Assembly (NCBI GenBank): GCA_965238175.1
Contig: CBDEGZ010000003.1
Location: 1 to 64,000 of the forward strand
Direction of reading: 5' to 3'
Source of the DNA: Gammaproteobacteria bacterium
Lineage (GTDB): Bacteria > Pseudomonadota > Gammaproteobacteria > CAJXQU01
Length of the DNA: 64,000 nucleotides
Below are positions 1 through 14,124 of this stretch, piece by piece (positions within the stretch are counted from its first letter, which is position 1; each line of letters opens with the position of its first letter). The notes beneath the pieces were generated by a model. That model was not told where the DNA came from. It did no database searches and saw only the letters and a program-made list of their open reading frames with translations. Position numbers and translations under genes: made by a program.

Positions 1-222
1 AGATAAAACATTCAGATAACAGGGACAGGATTGCTGTCATATATACGGCCTTCAATGAAGTTTTCAACTTCTGACCTGGATGTATTACGCGCCTATTTTC
101 CTTATCAGGTTATCGGTATTAGTTACCCCTGAGCTCGACAGGTTTTCAATAGGCTGGTTTGACCTGTTATGCCATCTTTAGTTTTACCTTCGCAATTCGT
201 TGAAATGATTTGTTCTCTCTAT
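1..222 (-). ncRNA. Putative bridge/seekRNA-coding non-coding end of IS110 copy 1 (partial)
   Basis: Long non-coding region downstream of the transposase; target-matching tcaggtta (105-112) and cctgagctc (128-136); donor-matching tcatatat (37-44) and gatgt (79-83). Confidence 0.75.
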
Positions 223-1236
223 TTAGGCCGGTGAGTAGTCATCACCAGAAACCGTTATAGCCCAGGCCATTCTTGCCATTTTGTTGGCATACGCCACACA
301 CGCTCGATTATGCCCCCGCGTCTCAACTAAACGATTAATCCATTGACTCAGTTTATCGCCTTTCGTTTTGGCTCTTGATACCACGGCCTTCGCGCCTAGA
401 ATTAACAAACAACGAAGGTATTTATTGCCGCGTTTACTGATCCCCAGTAGCACCTCTTTACCACCACTACTGTACTGTCGTGGAACAAGTCCTAATGAGG
501 CGGACACATCGCGCCCTTTGTGATAATGAGCGCCGTTTCCCACTTCATTAAAATACGCGCTCGAGACCATCGGCCCAAACCCTGGAATAGTTTGTAAGCG
601 TTGGCAAATCGCATTGTTTTTTGCCGATTGAATGATCAATTGGTCAAATGTCGCAATACAGGCATCAAGTGATTGCCATTGTTCCTTTAGCTGGCGCAGT
701 ATCCTTTTGAAAGTAACGGACAACCGTTCGTTCTCATCACTTAATAGCAACGGGATAGATTGACGTAGGGTATTTAGGCCGGGACGAAGGCTAATGCCAT
801 ATTCTGCAACAAGCGCTCTCATTTGGTTACATAATGCGGTTCTTTGTCTGACCGCTAAGTCTCTTGCTTTATGTTGTGCCTGGTTGTCTTGTTGCTCAAC
901 TGATTTAATGCCCACACTTTTTAAATGAGGTTGTTTCGCAGCAACGGCGATGGCCAAGGCATCGTTATAATCATTCTTATTGCCGATTAGAAATGCGTTA
1001 ACATGCTGAGGTGGTAGTAATTTCACCTGATGTCCCTGTTGTTGTATCGCTCGGGCCCAATACTGTGACGTTGCACAAGATTCTATTGCGACTAAACAAG
1101 GAGGTTGAGATTGAAAAAAGGAGAGTACCTGCGCTCGCTTTAACATTTTCTTTTTGATTATACGCCCTTGTTGATTACAGCAGACAGCATGAAATACGTT
1201 TTTTGCTATGTCTAACCCGATTGTTGTAGTCTTCAT
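223..1236 (-). CDS. IS110 family DEDD recombinase/transposase
   Basis: GLDIAK, AIESC and KNDYNDA (DEDD), plus C-terminal GLVPRQYSSGG and ISKRGNKYLR; ATG at 1236 preceded by GAGGAG. Confidence 0.96.
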   Translation of the reverse strand: MKTTTIGLDIAKNVFHAVCCNQQGRIIKKKMLKRAQVLSFFQSQPPCLVAIESCATSQYWARAIQQQGHQVKLLPPQHVNAFLIGNKNDYNDALAIAVAAKQPHLKSVGIKSVEQQDNQAQHKARDLAVRQRTALCNQMRALVAEYGISLRPGLNTLRQSIPLLLSDENERLSVTFKRILRQLKEQWQSLDACIATFDQLIIQSAKNNAICQRLQTIPGFGPMVSSAYFNEVGNGAHYHKGRDVSASLGLVPRQYSSGGKEVLLGISKRGNKYLRCLLILGAKAVVSRAKTKGDKLSQWINRLVETRGHNRACVAYANKMARMAWAITVSGDDYSPA

Positions 1237-1290
1237 TTTGGTCTTCTCCTCTTTTGATTGTGTGTATGTCAGTTCAATCATGGCACCTAG

Positions 1291-2442
1291 ATGCCGTTAG
1301 GGGGAGGAGACCATCACATCAGGTTAATTACTATCGCAAGCACTAGAAAAATCATTCACATCGACATGGATGCTTTTTTTGCCTCTGTGGAACAACGCGA
1401 TCATCCTGAATACCGAAACAAACCGCTGATCGTCGGTGGCGATCCGGGTAAGCGTGGTGTCGTTGCCGCCTGTAGTTATGAGGCGCGGAAATTCGGCATT
1501 CATTCCGCAATGCCCTCTTCTCGCGCACAACGATTATGTCCGGATGCGATTTTTGTAAAACCAAAAATTGATGCTTATCGAGAAGTTTCTGATCAACTCC
1601 GCGCAATCTTCGATCAATATTCTGATCTGGTTGAACCTCTTTCATTAGATGAAGCATATCTTGATGTTAGTAATTCTGATCAGTTTCAGGGATCTGCAAC
1701 CTTGATTGCAAAAGACATTAAACGTTCAATCTTTGAAAAGACAGATCTAATCGCTTCTGCCGGTGTCTCATATAATAAATTTCTTGCCAAGATCGCATCA
1801 GATCAAGATAAACCAAACGGTCTTTTTTTAATCACACCTGAAGAAGGCGAAGAATTTGTTCGACAATTAAAAGTTGGGAAATTCTATGGTGTTGGAAAAG
1901 TGACCGAAGCCAAAATGAAGTCACTAGGAATTCATAACGGTAAGGATCTAAAAAAATGGTCGGAAGAAAACTTAACTGAACAGTTTGGTAAAATAGGTAA
2001 GCACTACTATTTAATTGCACGTGGTATTGATCACAGAAAAGTAGAACCATCGCGGATTAGAAAATCACTGGGTAGCGAACTGACTTATGATCAAGATTTA
2101 GACAATCCTACACAAATCAAAGAGGAATTAAAAAAGTTTATACGCAAAGTTAATCAGAGTTTATCGGATAAAAAACTTCTCGCCCGTACATTTACGATTA
2201 AAATAAAGTACGACAACTTTGAGCAAATTACACGTAGTCAAACCCTAGAATCCCCACTAACTGCAGAAAAAATGCTCTCTCTGATTCCACTTCTAATAGA
2301 AAAAACAGAAATCGAAACACGTAAAGTCAGACTGTTGGGGATCAGTGTTTCAAAACTTGAAAATCAACAAGATCAAGAATCTAATTTACCGAAACAAGAG
2401 ATCCTTAGTTATCAGAAAAACCTAGATCTTCAACAGAAGTAG
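1291..2442 (+). CDS. dinB: DNA polymerase IV; 5' end abuts or lies inside the IS110 end, start uncertain
   Basis: RKIIHIDMDAFFASVEQRD, SYEARKFGIHSAM, LSLDEAYLD and KFLAKIASD motifs. Confidence 0.93.
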   Translation: MPLGGGDHHIRLITIASTRKIIHIDMDAFFASVEQRDHPEYRNKPLIVGGDPGKRGVVAACSYEARKFGIHSAMPSSRAQRLCPDAIFVKPKIDAYREVSDQLRAIFDQYSDLVEPLSLDEAYLDVSNSDQFQGSATLIAKDIKRSIFEKTDLIASAGVSYNKFLAKIASDQDKPNGLFLITPEEGEEFVRQLKVGKFYGVGKVTEAKMKSLGIHNGKDLKKWSEENLTEQFGKIGKHYYLIARGIDHRKVEPSRIRKSLGSELTYDQDLDNPTQIKEELKKFIRKVNQSLSDKKLLARTFTIKIKYDNFEQITRSQTLESPLTAEKMLSLIPLLIEKTEIETRKVRLLGISVSKLENQQDQESNLPKQEILSYQKNLDLQQK

Positions 2443-3370: not shown

Positions 3371-3407
3371 CAATGTTTGTTTCTAATCATTTGATGGAAG
3401 ATAGACT

Positions 3408-3977
3408 ATGCGAAAATTAATCATTGCGGCTTTCTCACTGCTGATCAGTGCGAACGTATTCAGCCACACCGACATTGAAGATACCTATAAAACCTTGGTG
3501 GATGAGAAAGGGAATATTTCTTTACCGAAAGATTACCGCCAAAACTGGACTTTTTTGGGGTCATATTTTGTAAAAAGCACAGCGACAGATAATGAGCCTA
3601 CTTATGATGTGCATACGGTATACACACAGGCCAAGGCTGTGGCACATTATCGTAAGCATGGCAGATTCCCAGATGGTGCGGTATTAATCAAAGAGGTTAA
3701 TGCCACCAAGTCAGAAGCCATGACAACCGGTCTCGCCAGTTATCAGGATGCACCCAAGGTGATATTTGCCATGGTGAAAGATAATAAAAACCGTTTCGCT
3801 AAAAATGCGGCCTGGGACGAAGGATGGGGTTGGGCCTTGTTCAATCCAGGTAACCCAAAGAGTCAAACCAGCAATTGGAAAGGCGAAGGATTTAATAATT
3901 GTTATGGTTGCCATGTACCGGTCAAAACTAATGATTGGGTGTATATCCAGGGTTACAAAGCCGTATTGGGCAAATAA
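3408..3977 (+). CDS. Cytochrome P460 family protein (periplasmic)
   Basis: Signal peptide; LPKDYRQNWTFLG, FPDGAVLIKE (cross-link Lys position), GWGWALF and C-terminal CYGCH heme motif. Confidence 0.88.
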   Translation: MRKLIIAAFSLLISANVFSHTDIEDTYKTLVDEKGNISLPKDYRQNWTFLGSYFVKSTATDNEPTYDVHTVYTQAKAVAHYRKHGRFPDGAVLIKEVNATKSEAMTTGLASYQDAPKVIFAMVKDNKNRFAKNAAWDEGWGWALFNPGNPKSQTSNWKGEGFNNCYGCHVPVKTNDWVYIQGYKAVLGK

Positions 3978-4012
3978 CCGTAATTGTTATTGATACGTCA
4001 AGGCCGGCAACT

Positions 4013-4110
4013 GTGACTGTTTTGTCCTGTGGACTTCTTTTAGTGGCTATTGGAGAAACAACTCCAACGCACAGAGGCGCTAAAAGAAGTCTGCTGGACA
4101 AAACAGTCAC
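4013..4110. repeat. Long inverted repeat (~98-bp hairpin) downstream of P460
   Basis: gtgactgttttgtcc (4013-4027) and ggacaaaacagtcac (4096-4110) pair perfectly; continued by gacttcttttag/ctaaaagaagtc and inner ttggag/ctccaa. Confidence 0.85.
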
Positions 4111-4142
4111 TGTGTTTTCATCTAATTCATTGTCTCTTTAAT

Positions 4143-5368
4143 TGTAGAAGTTTAGACCCAATCTGACACATCACTAAATCAAGCGGAGCGTAGCGACGCT
4201 TGATTTAGTGAGAGTTACCCGCTTTGATGTAACTGCAACGTAAACATCAAAACACAAAGAGGTAACTCTCATGATTCATACTAATGACAAAGTTATAAAA
4301 CATAAAGTTGGTCTACTCAATCTCGCTGAAGAACTCGGCAATGTCTCAAAAGCCTGCAAGATGATGGGTTTGTCCAGAGATACATTTTATCGCTACAAAG
4401 AAGCGGCTGATGAAGGCGGTGTAGAAGCCTTGTTTGATCGTAATCGGCGTACCCCAAATCTTAAAAACAGAATCGACCCGGCTATTGAAACCGTTGTGCT
4501 CGAGTATGCACTGGAAGAGCCCGCACATGGTCAAACGCGCACCAGTAACGAGCTGCGCAAACGGGGAACATTTGTCTCACCCAGTGGCGTTCGTTGTATC
4601 TGGCTTCGTCATGGTCTTGCTTGCTTTAAAGATCGCCTGAAGGCATTGTCTGATAAGGTAGCTGGTGAAGGCTTGATCCTCACTGAGTCTCAAGTCGCGG
4701 CGATGGAACGCAAGAAAGACGACGATGAGGCTTGTGGCGAGATAGAGACGGCACACCCTGGTTATCTTGGCTCGCAAGATACTTACTATGTCGGTACTTT
4801 CAAAGGCATTGGTCGGGTTTATCAACAAACGTTTGTTGATACTTACAGCAAGGTCGCTCACGCGAAACTGTACCCGACTAAAACACCGATTACGGCAGCT
4901 GACATGCTCAATGACCGCGTCCTCCCATTCTACGAACAACAACGTTTGCCTATGTTGCGCATTTTGACAGATAGAGGGACGGAGTATTGTGGGCGAGCTG
5001 ACCAGCATGATTATCAGCTTTATATGGCGTTGAACAATATCGAACACACCAAAACCAAGGTCAAATCACCTCAGACGAATGGTATTTGTGAGCGATTCCA
5101 TAAGACGATCCTCAATGAGTTTTATCAAGTCGCTTTGCGTAAGAAAATTTACCAATCGATTGATGAACTGCAACTCGACCTTGACGAATGGTTGCTCAAA
5201 TACAATACTCAACGAACTCACCAAGGCAAAATGTGCTGCGGGAGGACGCCGATGGAAACACTCATCGACGGACAAGCTATCTGGAAGGAAAAGTTTGTGA
5301 ATTAAACTTAACCTGACAGTCGGTTACTGATAATTGGGTAACTGTCAGATCAAATCTGAATTTCTACA
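4143..5368 (+). mobile_element. IS481 family element, copy A (1226 bp)
   Basis: TGTAGAA...TTCTACA ends; 7-bp duplication ctttaat at 4136-4142 and 5369-5375. Confidence 0.97.
4271..5305 (+). CDS. IS481 family transposase
   Basis: N-terminal HTH; rve DDE core SQDT, LTDRGTEY, PQTNGICERFH. Confidence 0.97.
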   Translation: MIHTNDKVIKHKVGLLNLAEELGNVSKACKMMGLSRDTFYRYKEAADEGGVEALFDRNRRTPNLKNRIDPAIETVVLEYALEEPAHGQTRTSNELRKRGTFVSPSGVRCIWLRHGLACFKDRLKALSDKVAGEGLILTESQVAAMERKKDDDEACGEIETAHPGYLGSQDTYYVGTFKGIGRVYQQTFVDTYSKVAHAKLYPTKTPITAADMLNDRVLPFYEQQRLPMLRILTDRGTEYCGRADQHDYQLYMALNNIEHTKTKVKSPQTNGICERFHKTILNEFYQVALRKKIYQSIDELQLDLDEWLLKYNTQRTHQGKMCCGRTPMETLIDGQAIWKEKFVN

Positions 5369-5421
5369 CTTTAATGTTTTTATAGTCATTCTTATCCCGA
5401 ATTCATATATGGTCTCCTCCC

Positions 5422-5651
5422 GTATTGCAAGATAAAACATTCAGATAACAGGGACAGGATTGCTGTCATATATACGGCCTTCAATGAAGTTTTCAACTTC
5501 TGACCTGGATGTATTACGCGCCTATTTTCCTTATCAGGTTATCGGTATTAGTTACCCCTGAGCTCGACAGGTTTTCAATAGGCTGGTTTGACCTGTTATG
5601 CCATCTTTAGTTTTACCTTCGCAATTCGTTGAAATGATTTGTTCTCTCTAT
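5422..5651 (-). ncRNA. Putative bridge/seekRNA (exact ends unknown)
   Basis: Guide-like segments at 5557-5565 and 5534-5541 (target) and at 5508-5512 and 5466-5473 (donor), each pair separated by a hairpin. Confidence 0.8.
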
Positions 5652-6665
5652 TTAGGCCGGTGAGTAGTCATCACCAGAAACCGTTATAGCCCAGGCCATT
5701 CTTGCCATTTTGTTGGCATACGCCACACACGCTCGATTATGCCCCCGCGTCTCAACTAAACGATTAATCCATTGACTCAGTTTATCGCCTTTCGTTTTGG
5801 CTCTTGATACCACGGCCTTCGCGCCTAGAATTAACAAACAACGAAGGTATTTATTGCCGCGTTTACTGATCCCCAGTAGCACCTCTTTACCACCACTACT
5901 GTACTGTCGTGGAACAAGTCCTAATGAGGCGGACACATCGCGCCCTTTGTGATAATGAGCGCCGTTTCCCACTTCATTAAAATACGCGCTCGAGACCATC
6001 GGCCCAAACCCTGGAATAGTTTGTAAGCGTTGGCAAATCGCATTGTTTTTTGCCGATTGAATGATCAATTGGTCAAATGTCGCAATACAGGCATCAAGTG
6101 ATTGCCATTGTTCCTTTAGCTGGCGCAGTATCCTTTTGAAAGTAACGGACAACCGTTCGTTCTCATCACTTAATAGCAACGGGATAGATTGACGTAGGGT
6201 ATTTAGGCCGGGACGAAGGCTAATGCCATATTCTGCAACAAGCGCTCTCATTTGGTTACATAATGCGGTTCTTTGTCTGACCGCTAAGTCTCTTGCTTTA
6301 TGTTGTGCCTGGTTGTCTTGTTGCTCAACTGATTTAATGCCCACACTTTTTAAATGAGGTTGTTTCGCAGCAACGGCGATGGCCAAGGCATCGTTATAAT
6401 CATTCTTATTGCCGATTAGAAATGCGTTAACATGCTGAGGTGGTAGTAATTTCACCTGATGTCCCTGTTGTTGTATCGCTCGGGCCCAATACTGTGACGT
6501 TGCACAAGATTCTATTGCGACTAAACAAGGAGGTTGAGATTGAAAAAAGGAGAGTACCTGCGCTCGCTTTAACATTTTCTTTTTGATTATACGCCCTTGT
6601 TGATTACAGCAGACAGCATGAAATACGTTTTTTGCTATGTCTAACCCGATTGTTGTAGTCTTCAT
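5652..6665 (-). CDS. IS110 family DEDD recombinase/transposase
   Basis: Protein identical to copy 1. Confidence 0.96.
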   Translation of the reverse strand: MKTTTIGLDIAKNVFHAVCCNQQGRIIKKKMLKRAQVLSFFQSQPPCLVAIESCATSQYWARAIQQQGHQVKLLPPQHVNAFLIGNKNDYNDALAIAVAAKQPHLKSVGIKSVEQQDNQAQHKARDLAVRQRTALCNQMRALVAEYGISLRPGLNTLRQSIPLLLSDENERLSVTFKRILRQLKEQWQSLDACIATFDQLIIQSAKNNAICQRLQTIPGFGPMVSSAYFNEVGNGAHYHKGRDVSASLGLVPRQYSSGGKEVLLGISKRGNKYLRCLLILGAKAVVSRAKTKGDKLSQWINRLVETRGHNRACVAYANKMARMAWAITVSGDDYSPA

Positions 6666-6756
6666 TTTGGTCTTCTCCTCTTTTGATTGTGTGTATGTCA
6701 GTTCAATCATGGCACCTAGATGCCGTTAGGGGGAGGAGACCATCACATCAGGTTAG

Positions 6757-7389
6757 TTACTCATCGATATAATGATTTCGAGTTCCTTGTAGGATCTGAA
6801 TTATATTATTTCGGCGTTTTTCTTCAGCATCTGGTCGATCTGATCGATGCCATTCAAGCATAAGATCACGTTGTCGTTTGAACAATTCGATACCGTGCTT
6901 TTCACTCATATATAAAACTGATCGAGCGATATCACCGCGTACTTTTTCTCTTGGTTCCACGCGACGTTTTTTTCGATCAATTTCAAAATCACATTTTCCA
7001 TATTTGCGTTTTTCGCCTTTCACAATTCCGAAAGCATAACTGCTACGATCTCTGTTGATATTCTTTTTTGCCGGATAAAGATTGTGAAGATCGGCTTCGA
7101 TCACATTAAAGCGGGAGCTATTTCGACGACAGGTTTTTCGATCACCACATTGTAGTTCACGCATTACCCAGCCCATAGGAAGAACATGTTCGACGTTTAT
7201 TTCACCCTGATAATTCGATTTAAATTTTTGGCCGCAATAAAGGCTTTTTCCACCGTTAGGGTAGAGATCTGACCAAAATAGATCGCGTGCTTCATAATAG
7301 TTTTGAATTGGGCGTTCAGCATCACAGCCAGTTGTTAAAACAAGCAGTAGAAAAAATAAAAAAGATTTAATAATTTTTTTAAGGTTCAT
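6757..7389 (-). CDS. Endonuclease I family (EndA/Dns-like) lipoprotein nuclease
   Basis: Lipobox TTGC; YCG, NVEHVLP, EADLHNLYPA, YGKCDF and RGDIARS motifs. Confidence 0.9.
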   Translation of the reverse strand: MNLKKIIKSFLFFLLLVLTTGCDAERPIQNYYEARDLFWSDLYPNGGKSLYCGQKFKSNYQGEINVEHVLPMGWVMRELQCGDRKTCRRNSSRFNVIEADLHNLYPAKKNINRDRSSYAFGIVKGEKRKYGKCDFEIDRKKRRVEPREKVRGDIARSVLYMSEKHGIELFKRQRDLMLEWHRSDRPDAEEKRRNNIIQILQGTRNHYIDE

Positions 7390-7474
7390 ATGTGCGATTT
7401 CGTGAGGTCATTTTTTACAGCTATTCGGACAATATAACTCAACTAAAACAGATAGTGTTGTCAATCTAAAAAGC

Positions 7475-7996
7475 TTAATAAAAACGTCCGGTTTTTGCTA
7501 TACGCTTCTGCCAGTAAGGTTCGCTGAGACTAGAAATTTTTACTTTTCTTCCTTTGCGTGGTGCGTGGATAAATTTACCATGACCCGCGTAAATCCCGAC
7601 GTGAGAAATATTACGCCAGTTAAAACGAAAAAAGATAACATCACCAGGTTTTAATTTAGAAGCTGGAATTGAGTAAGCCGATTTATATTGATCATTTGCA
7701 GTTCTTGGGACTTTTATACCGACACTCTGATGAGAATATTGAACCAAGCCACTGCAATCAAAACCGGATGGATCTTCACCACCATAACGATATGGTGAAC
7801 CTAAAAGGTTACTAGCAATAGTAAAAATTTCAACGCCTTTTCCGTGAGGTTTTATGGTCGCATAGCTTGGCGAAGGCGATCTTGTTTCGTCATTAACACG
7901 ATGGCTTTCTACAATAGGTGCGGGTGTATTAGAACAACCATTTAAGAATAGAAACATGAAAATAAAGATTGATCTAATAAAAGTAATCATTCTCAA
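7475..7996 (-). CDS. NlpC/P60 (C40) peptidase lipoprotein
   Basis: Lipobox LNGC; GSPYRYGG, GFDCSGL, HVGIY and FIHAP motifs. Confidence 0.93.
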   Translation of the reverse strand: MRMITFIRSIFIFMFLFLNGCSNTPAPIVESHRVNDETRSPSPSYATIKPHGKGVEIFTIASNLLGSPYRYGGEDPSGFDCSGLVQYSHQSVGIKVPRTANDQYKSAYSIPASKLKPGDVIFFRFNWRNISHVGIYAGHGKFIHAPRKGRKVKISSLSEPYWQKRIAKTGRFY

Positions 7997-8009
7997 AAAT
8001 TAACCATGT

Positions 8010-10407: not shown

Positions 10408-11633
10408 TGTAGAAGTTTAGACCCAATCTGACACATCACTAAATCAAGCGGAGCGTAGCGACGCTTGATTTAGTGAGAGTTACCCGCTTTGATGTAACTG
10501 CAACGTAAACATCAAAACACAAAGAGGTAACTCTCATGATTCATACTAATGACAAAGTTATAAAACATAAAGTTGGTCTACTCAATCTCGCTGAAGAACT
10601 CGGCAATGTCTCAAAAGCCTGCAAGATGATGGGTTTGTCCAGAGATACATTTTATCGCTACAAAGAAGCGGCTGATGAAGGCGGTGTAGAAGCCTTGTTT
10701 GATCGTAATCGGCGTACCCCAAATCTTAAAAACAGAATCGACCCGGCTATTGAAACCGTTGTGCTCGAGTATGCACTGGAAGAGCCCGCACATGGTCAAA
10801 CGCGCACCAGTAACGAGCTGCGCAAACGGGGAACATTTGTCTCACCCAGTGGCGTTCGTTGTATCTGGCTTCGTCATGGTCTTGCTTGCTTTAAAGATCG
10901 CCTGAAGGCATTGTCTGATAAGGTAGCTGGTGAAGGCTTGATCCTCACTGAGTCTCAAGTCGCGGCGATGGAACGCAAAAAAGACGACGATGAGGCTTGT
11001 GGCGAGATAGAGACGGCACACCCTGGTTATCTTGGCTCGCAAGATACTTACTATGTCGGTACTTTCAAAGGCATTGGTCGGGTTTATCAACAAACGTTTG
11101 TTGATACTTACAGCAAGGTCGCTCACGCGAAACTGTACCCGACTAAAACACCGATTACGGCAGCTGACATGCTCAATGACCGCGTCCTCCCATTCTACGA
11201 ACAACAACGTTTGCCTATGTTGCGCATTTTGACAGATAGAGGGACGGAGTATTGTGGGCGAGCTGACCAGCATGATTATCAGCTTTATATGGCGTTGAAC
11301 AATATCGAACACACCAAAACCAAGGTCAAATCACCTCAGACGAATGGTATTTGTGAGCGATTCCATAAGACGATCCTCAATGAGTTTTATCAAGTCGCTT
11401 TGCGTAAGAAAATTTACCAATCGATTGATGAACTGCAACTCGACCTTGACGAATGGTTGCTCAAATACAATACTCAACGAACTCACCAAGGCAAAATGTG
11501 CTGCGGGAGGACGCCGATGGAAACACTCATCGACGGACAAGCTATCTGGAAGGAAAAGTTTGTGAATTAAACTTAACCTGACAGTCGGTTACTGATAATT
11601 GGGTAACTGTCAGATCAAATCTGAATTTCTACA
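10408..11633 (+). mobile_element. IS481 family element, copy B
   Basis: Same ends; duplication attaaag at 10401-10407 and 11634-11640. Confidence 0.97.
10536..11570 (+). CDS. IS481 family transposase
   Basis: Same protein as copy A. Confidence 0.97.
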   Translation: MIHTNDKVIKHKVGLLNLAEELGNVSKACKMMGLSRDTFYRYKEAADEGGVEALFDRNRRTPNLKNRIDPAIETVVLEYALEEPAHGQTRTSNELRKRGTFVSPSGVRCIWLRHGLACFKDRLKALSDKVAGEGLILTESQVAAMERKKDDDEACGEIETAHPGYLGSQDTYYVGTFKGIGRVYQQTFVDTYSKVAHAKLYPTKTPITAADMLNDRVLPFYEQQRLPMLRILTDRGTEYCGRADQHDYQLYMALNNIEHTKTKVKSPQTNGICERFHKTILNEFYQVALRKKIYQSIDELQLDLDEWLLKYNTQRTHQGKMCCGRTPMETLIDGQAIWKEKFVN

Positions 11634-12898: not shown

Positions 12899-14124
12899 TG
12901 TAGAAATTCAGATTTGATCTGACAGTTACCCAATTATCAGTAACCGACTGTCAGGTTAAGTTTAATTCACAAACTTTTCCTTCCAGATAGCTTGTCCGTC
13001 GATGAGTGTTTCCATCGGCGTCCTCCCGCAGCACATTTTGCCTTGGTGAGTTCGTTGAGTATTGTATTTGAGCAACCATTCGTCAAGGTCGAGTTGCAGT
13101 TCATCAATCGATTGGTAAATTTTCTTACGCAAAGCGACTTGATAAAACTCATTGAGGATCGTCTTATGGAATCGCTCACAAATACCATTCGTCTGAGGTG
13201 ATTTGACCTTGGTTTTGGTGTGTTCGATATTGTTCAACGCCATATAAAGCTGATAATCATGCTGGTCAGCTCGCCCACAATACTCCGTCCCTCTATCTGT
13301 CAAAATGCGCAACATAGGCAAACGTTGTTCTTCGTAGAATGGGAGGACGCGGTCATTGAGCATGTCAGCTGCCGTAATCGGTGTTTTAGTCGGGTACAGT
13401 TTCGCGTGAGCGACCTTGCTGTAAGTATCAACAAACGTTTGTTGATAAACCCGACCAATGCCTTTGAAAGTACCGACATAGTAAGTATCTTGCGAGCCAA
13501 GATAACCAGGGTGTGCCGTCTCTATCTCGCCACAAGCCTCATCGTCGTCTTTTTTGCGTTCCATCGCCGCGACTTGAGACTCAGTGAGGATCAAGCCTTC
13601 ACCAGCTACCTTATCAGACAATGCCTTCAGGCGATCTTTAAAGCAAGCAAGACCATGACGAAGCCAGATACAACGAACGCCACTGGGTGAGACAAATGTT
13701 CCCCGTTTGCGCAGCTCGTTACTGGTGCGCGTTTGACCATGTGCGGGCTCTTCCAGTGCATACTCGAGCACAACGGTTTCAATAGCCGGGTCGATTCTGT
13801 TTTTAAGATTTGGGGTACGCCGATTACGATCAAACAAGGCTTCTACACCGCCTTCATCAGCCGCTTCTTTGTAGCGATAAAATGTATCTCTGGACAAACC
13901 CATCATCTTGCAGGCTTTTGAGACATTGCCGAGTTCTTCAGCGAGATTGAGTAGACCAACTTTATGTTTTATAACTTTGTCATTAGTATGAATCATGAGA
14001 GTTACCTCTTTGTGTTTTGATGTTTACGTTGCAGTTACATCAAAGCGGGTAACTCTCACTAAATCAAGCGTCGCTACGCTCCGCTTGATTTAGTGATGTG
14101 TCAGATTGGGTCTAAACTTCTACA
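12899..14124 (-). mobile_element. IS481 family element, copy C (nested in IS3)
   Basis: Same ends, inverted; duplication cttcaat at 12892-12898 and 14125-14131. Confidence 0.97.
12962..13996 (-). CDS. IS481 family transposase
   Basis: One substitution relative to copies A and B (FYEEQ vs FYEQQ). Confidence 0.97.
   Translation of the reverse strand: MIHTNDKVIKHKVGLLNLAEELGNVSKACKMMGLSRDTFYRYKEAADEGGVEALFDRNRRTPNLKNRIDPAIETVVLEYALEEPAHGQTRTSNELRKRGTFVSPSGVRCIWLRHGLACFKDRLKALSDKVAGEGLILTESQVAAMERKKDDDEACGEIETAHPGYLGSQDTYYVGTFKGIGRVYQQTFVDTYSKVAHAKLYPTKTPITAADMLNDRVLPFYEEQRLPMLRILTDRGTEYCGRADQHDYQLYMALNNIEHTKTKVKSPQTNGICERFHKTILNEFYQVALRKKIYQSIDELQLDLDEWLLKYNTQRTHQGKMCCGRTPMETLIDGQAIWKEKFVN

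Follow-up and report, generated by a model that had tools for sequence, protein, structure and literature searches.

Positions 5406-6750 (minus strand) of the 64,000-nucleotide (nt) stretch of gammaproteobacterial DNA analysed here, hereafter the window, very probably hold an intact insertion sequence (IS) of the IS1111 type, IS110 family, whose non-coding tail encodes a guide RNA with two loops. The window is positions 1-64000 of contig C3 in a genome (G000) of 3.35 Mb and three contigs. An initial annotation had described the region downstream of the transposase gene as such an RNA and had picked out four short segments in it as matches to the target and to the element's own ends. These proved to be the four guide segments of the predicted RNA: the helices that frame them covary in 55 aligned tails, and the guides covary with the flanks and ends of the elements that carry them. 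Coordinates without a contig name are those of the window.

Results

Homologues and structure of the tail RNA

A scan of species-representative genomes gave 80 loci with transposase relatives of 49-78% identity, mostly in marine Gammaproteobacteria and Desulfuromonadales (loci are designated by L, genomes by G). Both ends were located by pattern in 60 of 81 sources, i.e., the window's own copy plus the 80 loci; the remaining 21, which had truncated contigs or diverged ends, stand outside all counts. Fifty-six distinct tails were aligned and 55 of them used, L064 being excluded for a 50-nt deletion. The 55 tails span 238 columns at a mean identity of 69%. For the target tests there were 53 distinct guide pairs and 48 distinct flank pairs.

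RNAalifold and pair counts over the 55 tails yielded four helices with compensatory changes. In a first count 97.8% of cells were paired against 88.0% in shuffles, and 20 pairs had changed on both sides. Long-range pairs proposed by RNAalifold (31-33/229-231 and 209-226), which involve the invariant columns of the subterminal repeats, were dropped for a second count, in which an outer helix, ACAGG/CCUGU, was tested in their place; here 97.3% of cells were paired against 86.4% in shuffles, with 22 pairs changed on both sides. None of 500 shuffles reached any of the five structure measures, and when the structures were slid by 1-3 columns only 33-48% of cells remained paired, the range for the first count being 38-48%. 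All eight pairs of helix P1, which closes the target-binding loop, had changed on both sides (99.1% of cells paired), as had all four pairs of the hairpin inside that loop (in 26 and 23 sequences at the inner two pairs). In the second half of the tail the GGYC/GRCC stem (helix 6) was 100% paired with two of four pairs covarying, and the inner donor hairpin (helix 7) covaried at five of five pairs. The outer helix was 96% paired and had compensatory changes at two of its five pairs. As these comparisons demonstrate, the predicted tail RNA has two successive internal loops; covarying helices frame each of them, and a covarying hairpin splits it. The 143-nt size of the core enclosed by the outer helix agrees with the 145-170 nt given for long seekRNAs (PMC11187229, Discussion).

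An Rfam 15 scan of positions 4000-8000 (E <= 1) gave four weak matches and none in 5403-5651.

The target loop

The initial annotation had reported tcaggtta (5534-5541) as a match to the insertion flanks and cctgagctc (5557-5565) as a match to the opposite target strand, with ggta (5544-5547) and tacc (5553-5556) forming a hairpin between them, and all of these lie where it placed them. In 2000 dinucleotide shuffles of the tail (221 nt), the exact sense target 8-mer recurred 140 times, the donor 8-mer 125 times, and both together 11 times; the antisense matches were unremarkable, a 6-mer being found in 1138 and a 7-mer in 471 of the 2000. A single copy is thus suggestive only; it is the comparative evidence that decides.

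Among the 53 guide pairs, the reverse complement of the 5' target guide equalled right-flank positions +1 to +6 in 36-46 pairs and left-flank position -1 in 40, falling to 16 at +7. The 3' target guide equalled left-flank positions -5 to -1 in 42-52 pairs and -6 in only 14. The RNA thus reads 5 + 2 + 6 bases. The mean guide-flank match was 4.72 of 6 on the left and 5.17 of 6 on the right, against 1.78 and 2.74 for permuted pairings, and none of 10,000 permutations reached the observed sums. Close relatives with other sites illustrate the agreement. L031 has guides UAACCUCA and GAUCUGA and flanks aGATC-TG and TG-AGGTTAA; L034 has guide UAACUUGA with flank TAACT-TG; and L035 and L036 have guide AUACCCA with flank TG-GGTATA. 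In the tail, the match to the top strand lies 5' of the match to the bottom strand, which is also the order in IS1111-type seekRNAs (PMC11187229).

The donor loop and the central dinucleotides

The matches to the joined ends in the initial annotation, tcatatat (5466-5473) and gatgt (5508-5512) on either side of the hairpin gaagttttcaacttc (5486-5500), were likewise found in place. A guide does lie at gatgt; its extent is 5507-5513, and it pairs with G-ATGT-G of the left end with one G-U pair counted. Base 4 of the left end, which may be T, A or G, was matched by the 5' donor guide in 30 of 31 distinct combinations, the sole miss having C. T recurs at this base in separate clades (L079, L099), and G occurs in L104 and L105. 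The 5' donor segment as a whole is complementary to YG and the adjoining left end, and the 3' segment repeats ATATA together with the dinucleotide beyond the right end. In 26 of 31 combinations the dinucleotide in the 3' donor guide was the one found after the right end (TG in 12, CG in 14). The donor-guide test rests on few events, since few independent changes are available.

At 13 of the 60 loci TG precedes the left end and CG follows the right end (L056, L058, L059, L064, L078, L081, L082, L086, L088, L092, L094, L100 and L108); the reverse arrangement was never seen among them. In the genome of L100 (G002), all 91 empty sites GTAGGTYGGATAAG read CG. In four genomes (G001-G004) left ends read TG in 10 of 10 cases, and CG follows the right end in 8 of 10. 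The left T is therefore carried by the element, which agrees with the 7-nt left extension and the lack of target duplication published for IS1111 (PMC11187229). Among relatives of the Thiotrichaceae type, TG is read by the 5' donor guide only, the other donor guide (3') and the two target guides all reading CG. The second loop therefore fits the integrated ends better than it fits a symmetric circle junction.

What the long seekRNA does is not established, according to the discussion by its discoverers (PMC11187229). We regard it as possible, though on balance doubtful, that the long seekRNA of the ISPa11-like clade has a donor loop as its 3' half, one that reads the chromosomal ends and not a symmetric circle junction. 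On this reading, and just as tentatively, the 5' guide may take the element-borne YG plus the left end, and the 3' guide the right end plus the first two target bases. If true, donor and target would need to share only the crossover G, and excision would depend on the second loop no less than insertion.

In a Colwellia metagenome-assembled genome (MAG), the left flank of L036 (L036:1140-1210) ends in ...CAATATATA-TG, which is like the element's own right end (CCATATA-TG) and unlike its own 3' target guide (AAACA-UG). This flank may reflect an insertion guided by the donor loop, or may be the remnant of a tandem copy.

Insertion sites

All 24 full-length copies in the genome (see below) lie in one orientation between AACC and TG-A: in element orientation the left end is preceded by AACC-TG and the right end followed by TG-A in 24 of 24 copies, with T at -5 in 23 of 24, so that TAACC is found at 23 own sites and AACC at all 24. 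The flank logo that the initial annotation had called for thus gave related flanks throughout. The right-side logo, each count out of 24, is A19 C16 T22 C17 G14 G18 G19 A19 T19 A17 A17 G15, and the consensus of the real sites is TAACC-TG-AACTCGGGATAAG. Conservation extends far to the right because most sites sit in the terminal repeat of a 215-bp palindromic element resembling a miniature inverted-repeat transposable element (MITE). The preferred target had been given as TAACC-TGA-GCTC; its left half is borne out, while most right sides read AACTCG, and the right half predicted by the guide, AGCTCG, is exact at position +2 in only 3 of 24 sites. A core within TGA had also been proposed. The junctions do read TG-A in all 24, while the dinucleotide common to both junctions is TG alone, the third base, A, being the base with which the left end begins as well as the first one of the target (24/24). 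Both dinucleotides are TG in this element, so the evidence on target duplication comes from the relatives described above. As had been stated, removing 5406-6750 (or 5404-6748) restores the target, joining cccgaatt + ca + ggttagtta, and the right flank of copy 1 reads TCA-ggttaatta.

The MITE-like repeat (215 bp, palindromic, terminal repeats of about 22 bp, TAACCTRAAYTCGGGATAAGAA) folds to -89.9 kcal/mol. It has an intact copy at G000 C3:2509894-2510108, about nine more long matches, and pieces in the window at 4010-4142 and 5370-5403. In at least seven copies the match begins at base 8 of one terminal repeat, abutting an IS110-family copy, and the other terminal repeat is often intact and empty. 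Three insertions are found 3 nt beyond the end of an IS481-family element. Another repeat (TG-AGATCGGTTTAAGCC) has received two and also serves as the site of the Colwellia relative L032. Twelve unoccupied sites lie within one mismatch of TAACCTGAACTCG, three of them exact.

An IS481-family IS lies inside the MITE at 4146-5370, with its transposase at 4271-5305 (plus strand; NF033577, 278 bits against a cut-off of 224). Open reading frames as long as this transposase occur at 10536-11570 (plus) and 12962-13996 (minus). Three of the IS110-type copies have one IS481-plus-MITE flank in common, and three others lie 3 nt beyond the opposite IS481 end. The IS481 ends give weak Rfam matches to psRNA2 (RF02349; 26.2 and 21.6 bits, where the gathering score is 65).

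Identity, anatomy and copies of the element

Every mark that could be tested, both of the IS1111 group and of the guide RNA, is present in the element, and the classification in the initial annotation, as IS110/IS1111-type with a non-coding region downstream of the gene, is upheld by Pfam, NCBIfam, the repeats and the 246-nt tail. The transposase matches PF01548 (E = 3.6e-16) and PF02371 (E = 6.4e-20), and scores 302.8 bits against a cut-off of 140 with the NCBIfam model NF033542, 'IS110 family RNA-guided transposase'. Residues E52, D89, D92, G249, P252 and G258 are identical in all but at most one of 56 aligned proteins. The sequence GLVPRQYSSG, residues 249-258, fits GL-P----S(t)G, the published motif of the family (PMC11187229). 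In a plain sequence search the protein aligned to the IS621 transposase (PDB 8wt6, E = 2e-4), the alignment being confined to the C-terminal domain.

By the IS1111 convention, from left extension to right extension with one TG assigned to the left end, the IS is 1345 bp long. It has 13-bp subterminal repeats, a left terminal extension of 7 nt and a right one of 3 nt, as the IS1111 rule has it (PMC11187229), a 337-residue transposase, inside the 330-350 range of the group, and a tail downstream of the gene (246 nt from the stop codon at 5652 to the right end at 5406) that is longer than the upstream non-coding part (85 nt, 6666-6750). The subterminal repeat is kept in most homologue loci. Coordinates of all features are given in Table 1.

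Table 1. Features of the element and its target in the window
Feature	Positions	Strand	Sequence or remark
Whole insertion sequence	5406..6750	-	Stretch common to 24 full copies
Left terminal extension	6744..6750	-	TGATGTG (TG + ATGTG), 7 nt
Left subterminal inverted repeat	6731..6743	-	ATGGTCTCCTCCC; 13 bp, perfect against 5409-5421
Right subterminal inverted repeat	5409..5421	-	GGGAGGAGACCAT; followed by 3-nt extension ATA (5406-5408)
Left target half	6751..6755	-	TAACC; from flank logo
Right target half at this copy	5391..5405	-	TG (5404-5405) + AATTCGGGATAAG; MITE-like terminal repeat
Transposase gene, 337 residues	5652..6665	-	DEDD/RuvC-like N-terminal domain; C-terminal domain with GLVPRQYSSG
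Predicted long guide RNA core, 143 nt	5454..5596	-	Outer helix ACAGG (5592-5596)/CCUGU (5454-5458); RNA ends predicted
Helix P1, 5' strand	5576..5583	-	GCCUAUUG; closes target-binding loop, pairs with 5520-5527
Helix P1, 3' strand	5520..5527	-	Partner of 5576-5583
5' target guide	5557..5567	-	UCGAGCUCAGG; complementary to target top strand CC + TG + AGCTCG
Hairpin between target guides	5544..5556	-	GGUA-ACUAA-UACC
3' target guide	5534..5542	-	AUAACCUGA; sense of left flank TAACC + TG + A, pairs with bottom strand
5' donor guide	5507..5513	-	UACAUCC; complementary to G-ATGT-G of left end, one G-U pair counted
Stem-loop between donor guides	5476..5505	-	GGUC/GGCC stem + hairpin GAAGUUGAAAACUUC (5486-5500)
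3' donor guide	5466..5474	-	UAUAUAUGA; sense of right end ATATA + TG + A
-35-like hexamer	5425..5430	-	TTGCAA; 17 nt from TATGAT across joined ends; putative function
Copy 1 of the IS	1..1336	-	Right end cut by contig start

Twenty-five matches of at least 1336 nt were found in the genome, namely 24 full-length copies and copy 1, whose missing part was not found at the contig end. Among the matches listed, at least 12 places have 100% identity across IS positions 1-1345. Compared over 1343 nt, the 24 full copies differ at two positions, each varying in one copy only, and all encode one identical protein. The element was therefore apparently very recently active, as the initial annotation had held, and has multiplied to 25 almost identical copies. 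Solo left-end remnants, each following TAACCTG, were seen at G000 C3:1154707-1154798, 1393265-1393348, 2897426-2897503 and 2357902-2358288. Two 49-nt pieces stand side by side in inverted orientation, and one partial copy is diverged (79% over 397 nt).

Five of six other species of the same genus had no match to the element, nor had any of 24 genomes from other families of the class. In the sixth species (G008, C355:8833-9028) a 192-nt match (84%) covers the RNA-coding right end, and the transposase gene is without a DNA match; either this tail is an orphan, or it belongs to a related element whose gene has diverged. At the DNA level only the tail still matches distant plasmid elements: over 192 nt it is 70.7% identical to one of the IS1111 family, which is carried by an E. 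coli IncHI2 plasmid and encodes a transposase of 43% identity. Searches of plasmid and E. coli collections gave distant relatives only, the annotation being 'IS110 family transposase' for some and 'transposase for insertion sequence element IS1111A' for others. No published description of this particular element was found in literature searches and in the plasmid and E. coli collections, a search that did not extend to ISfinder or to the supplements of the 2024 papers.

The IS is placed between the MITE/IS481 cluster and the end of an endonuclease I gene (PF04231, 6757-7389, minus strand); a cytochrome P460 gene (PF16694) lies at 3408-3977 (plus). NCBIfam matches for nine window proteins were to housekeeping genes, including GatA/GatB and a PEP-CTERM TPR protein. 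Pfam models for AMO and for T4BSS DotI/IcmL had no match in the genome, nor in the control genomes, so this negative does not demonstrate absence.

Contigs of sequencing runs (X1, X2, X4 and X5) were compared with positions 3400-8000, and the outcome was not used as evidence. The IS formed one unitig, 5403-6755 in X1 and 5403-6754 in X2, at a word depth of 37.8 and 139.2, respectively, against 2-4 in the unique flanks. No circle junction or empty-site joint was listed in these contigs, X4 and X5 giving short pieces only. The run records place the stretch in three rows of one study; three more runs under the same species label contain next to none of it.

Proposed mechanism

By analogy with the mechanism published for the family, we propose that the element would excise as a circle whose joined ends, reading ...CCATATA-TG-ATGTGATGG..., create a promoter (TTGCAA, 17 nt, TATGAT). 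The TTGC of the -35-like hexamer is invariant in the 55 tails, and a junction promoter is on record for the family (PMC11187229). The transposase mRNA would be transcribed together with the tail RNA from this junction promoter, and the tail transcript may then be processed to forms of about 90 and about 150 nt. A terminator-like hairpin lies at 5467-5453 in the promoter and terminator scan. The RNA would bind the DEDD/serine recombinase and align the joined ends with a site TAACC-TG-A(A/G)CTCG, and insertion would follow in one orientation before the TG of the target, without duplication.

Alternative explanations

It might be argued that only the first loop guides, as a short seekRNA, that the protein reads the ends through the subterminal repeats, and that processing, termination or regulation is what the tail's 3' half is for. 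A short 70-100-nt RNA with the target matches only is reported to suffice for transposition of ISEc11 (Siddiquee et al., PMC11187229), the subterminal repeats are nearly invariant, as expected of a protein site, and the terminator-like hairpin and the end of the 3' donor segment overlap; moreover, with a right end that is almost constant, there is little room for its guide to covary. We nevertheless think this improbable, given that base 4 of the left end and its guide change together in 30 of 31 combinations, including L079, L099, L104 and L105 outside the clade of the window element, and that the dinucleotide after the right end follows the 3' segment in 26 of 31. The layout of the second loop also copies that of the target loop, and donor-binding nucleotides were predicted in IS1111 RNAs by Durrant et al. 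(PMC11208160). Alternatively the tail could act as DNA, its end-like and target-like words being protein-binding sites or single-stranded DNA hairpins used in transposition. The matches are equally present in DNA, and no run is recorded as RNA; yet four helices carry compensatory changes, which speaks for a folded single strand, and the tail nucleic acid bound by a transposase of the family was digested by RNase and not by DNase (PMC11187229), which makes this very unlikely. That the matches are chance in an A+T-rich tail, with the site preference coming from the protein alone, is hardly credible: for a single copy, each sense 8-mer alone does turn up in 6-7% of shuffles and the antisense matches lack significance, but both 8-mers occur together in only 11 of 2000 shuffles, and 0 of 10,000 permutations reach the matching seen over the 53 guide pairs.

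Several observations weigh against the two-loop guide RNA that we prefer. At +2 the 5' target guide predicts G, and A is found there in 19 of 24 sites. At least three sites that exactly fit the consensus TAACCTGAACTCG are empty, as is the sole exact genomic copy of the guide-predicted TAACCTGAGCTCG (G000 C3:393936-393955). In the window element the last base of the 5' donor guide is mismatched at the T of TG. The single-sequence fold is unremarkable (z = -1.86, with 7 of 200 shuffles folding as well); the minimum-energy fold includes P1 and both hairpins, and because this z value is unconvincing, the alignment was relied on instead. Of the fold and covariation check that the initial annotation had suggested, it is the covariation of helices and guides in the homologues that speaks for a guide RNA. 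Since the homologues are kin, the permutation tests overstate independence. The promoter scan found no sigma-70-like promoter on the minus strand of the linear element, and none of the sequencing runs listed for the stretch is recorded as RNA, so that transcription, RNA ends and protein binding are here only inferred.

The empty copy of TAACCTGAGCTCG lies about 4 nt from the right end of another IS copy, in inverted orientation.

Discussion

The element is a clean new example of a known RNA-guided kind, that of the ISPa11/ISEc11-like seekRNAs, or bridge RNAs, and its mechanism is not new. Like ISPa11, ISEc11, ISKpn4 and ISPst6 (PMC11187229), it belongs with elements that have subterminal repeats of 11-13 bp, extensions of 7 and 3 nt, a transposase of about 340 residues with GL-P----S(t)G, and a non-coding region downstream. 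As in the ISPa11-type seekRNA, the top-strand match comes 5', and the two matches overlap at the insertion point; the predicted RNAs of about 90 and about 150 nt fit the 82-96 and 148-172 nt given for seekRNAs (PMC11187229). Homologues L079, L073 and L051, with flanks gtaggg-CG, have the ISPa11 site GTAGGG-CG of a 2026 review (PMC13604230). Unlike those four elements, ours has the target TAACC-TG-AACTCG in a MITE-like terminal repeat and another host.

The DEDD and serine recombinase domains are also those of IS621, and the C-terminal domains of the two proteins align (E = 2e-4). The bridge RNA of IS621 is reportedly treated as well by Hiraizumi et al. in 2024. As in that bridge RNA (PMC11208160), there are two loops, target first and donor second, each with a bottom-strand guide (left) and a top-strand guide (right) that both cover the central dinucleotide. 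The 5' target guide is the counterpart of the RTG in IS621 and of the 'T' match in seekRNA, and the 3' target guide that of the LTG and the 'B' match. Unlike the IS621 RNA, which lies at the left end, this RNA is at the right end, downstream of the gene, and the order of guides within the loops is reversed; the subterminal repeats are long, and the central dinucleotide is TG (CG in relatives), that of IS621 being CT (PMC11208160).

The choice of site also has a parallel. Insertion into the terminal repeats of another mobile element is common to the present IS and to IS4321/IS5075, the repeat here being one of about 22 bp of a 215-bp non-autonomous element. IS4321 and IS5075, of the IS1111 family, have as their target the 38-bp repeat of Tn21-family transposons; the insertion of these elements in terminal inverted repeats is reportedly the subject of Partridge and Hall (2003).

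Because the mechanism is known, the value of the finding is as material. The initial annotation had named the element a candidate programmable tool; this is fair, though nothing sets the element apart in that respect, as the same scaffold is found in the 55 homologue tails and in the E. coli plasmid elements. The element is well preserved and apparently active, and its occupied and empty natural sites are visible in one genome. The 53 guide pairs with their sites amount to a natural specificity table for the scaffold, covering five bases on the left, YG, and six on the right. The comparisons also lend support to a donor-reading loop in an IS1111-type RNA, which earlier work had predicted and left unsettled. 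While no surprise to a specialist, this material could help in choosing or designing orthologues for programmable insertion.

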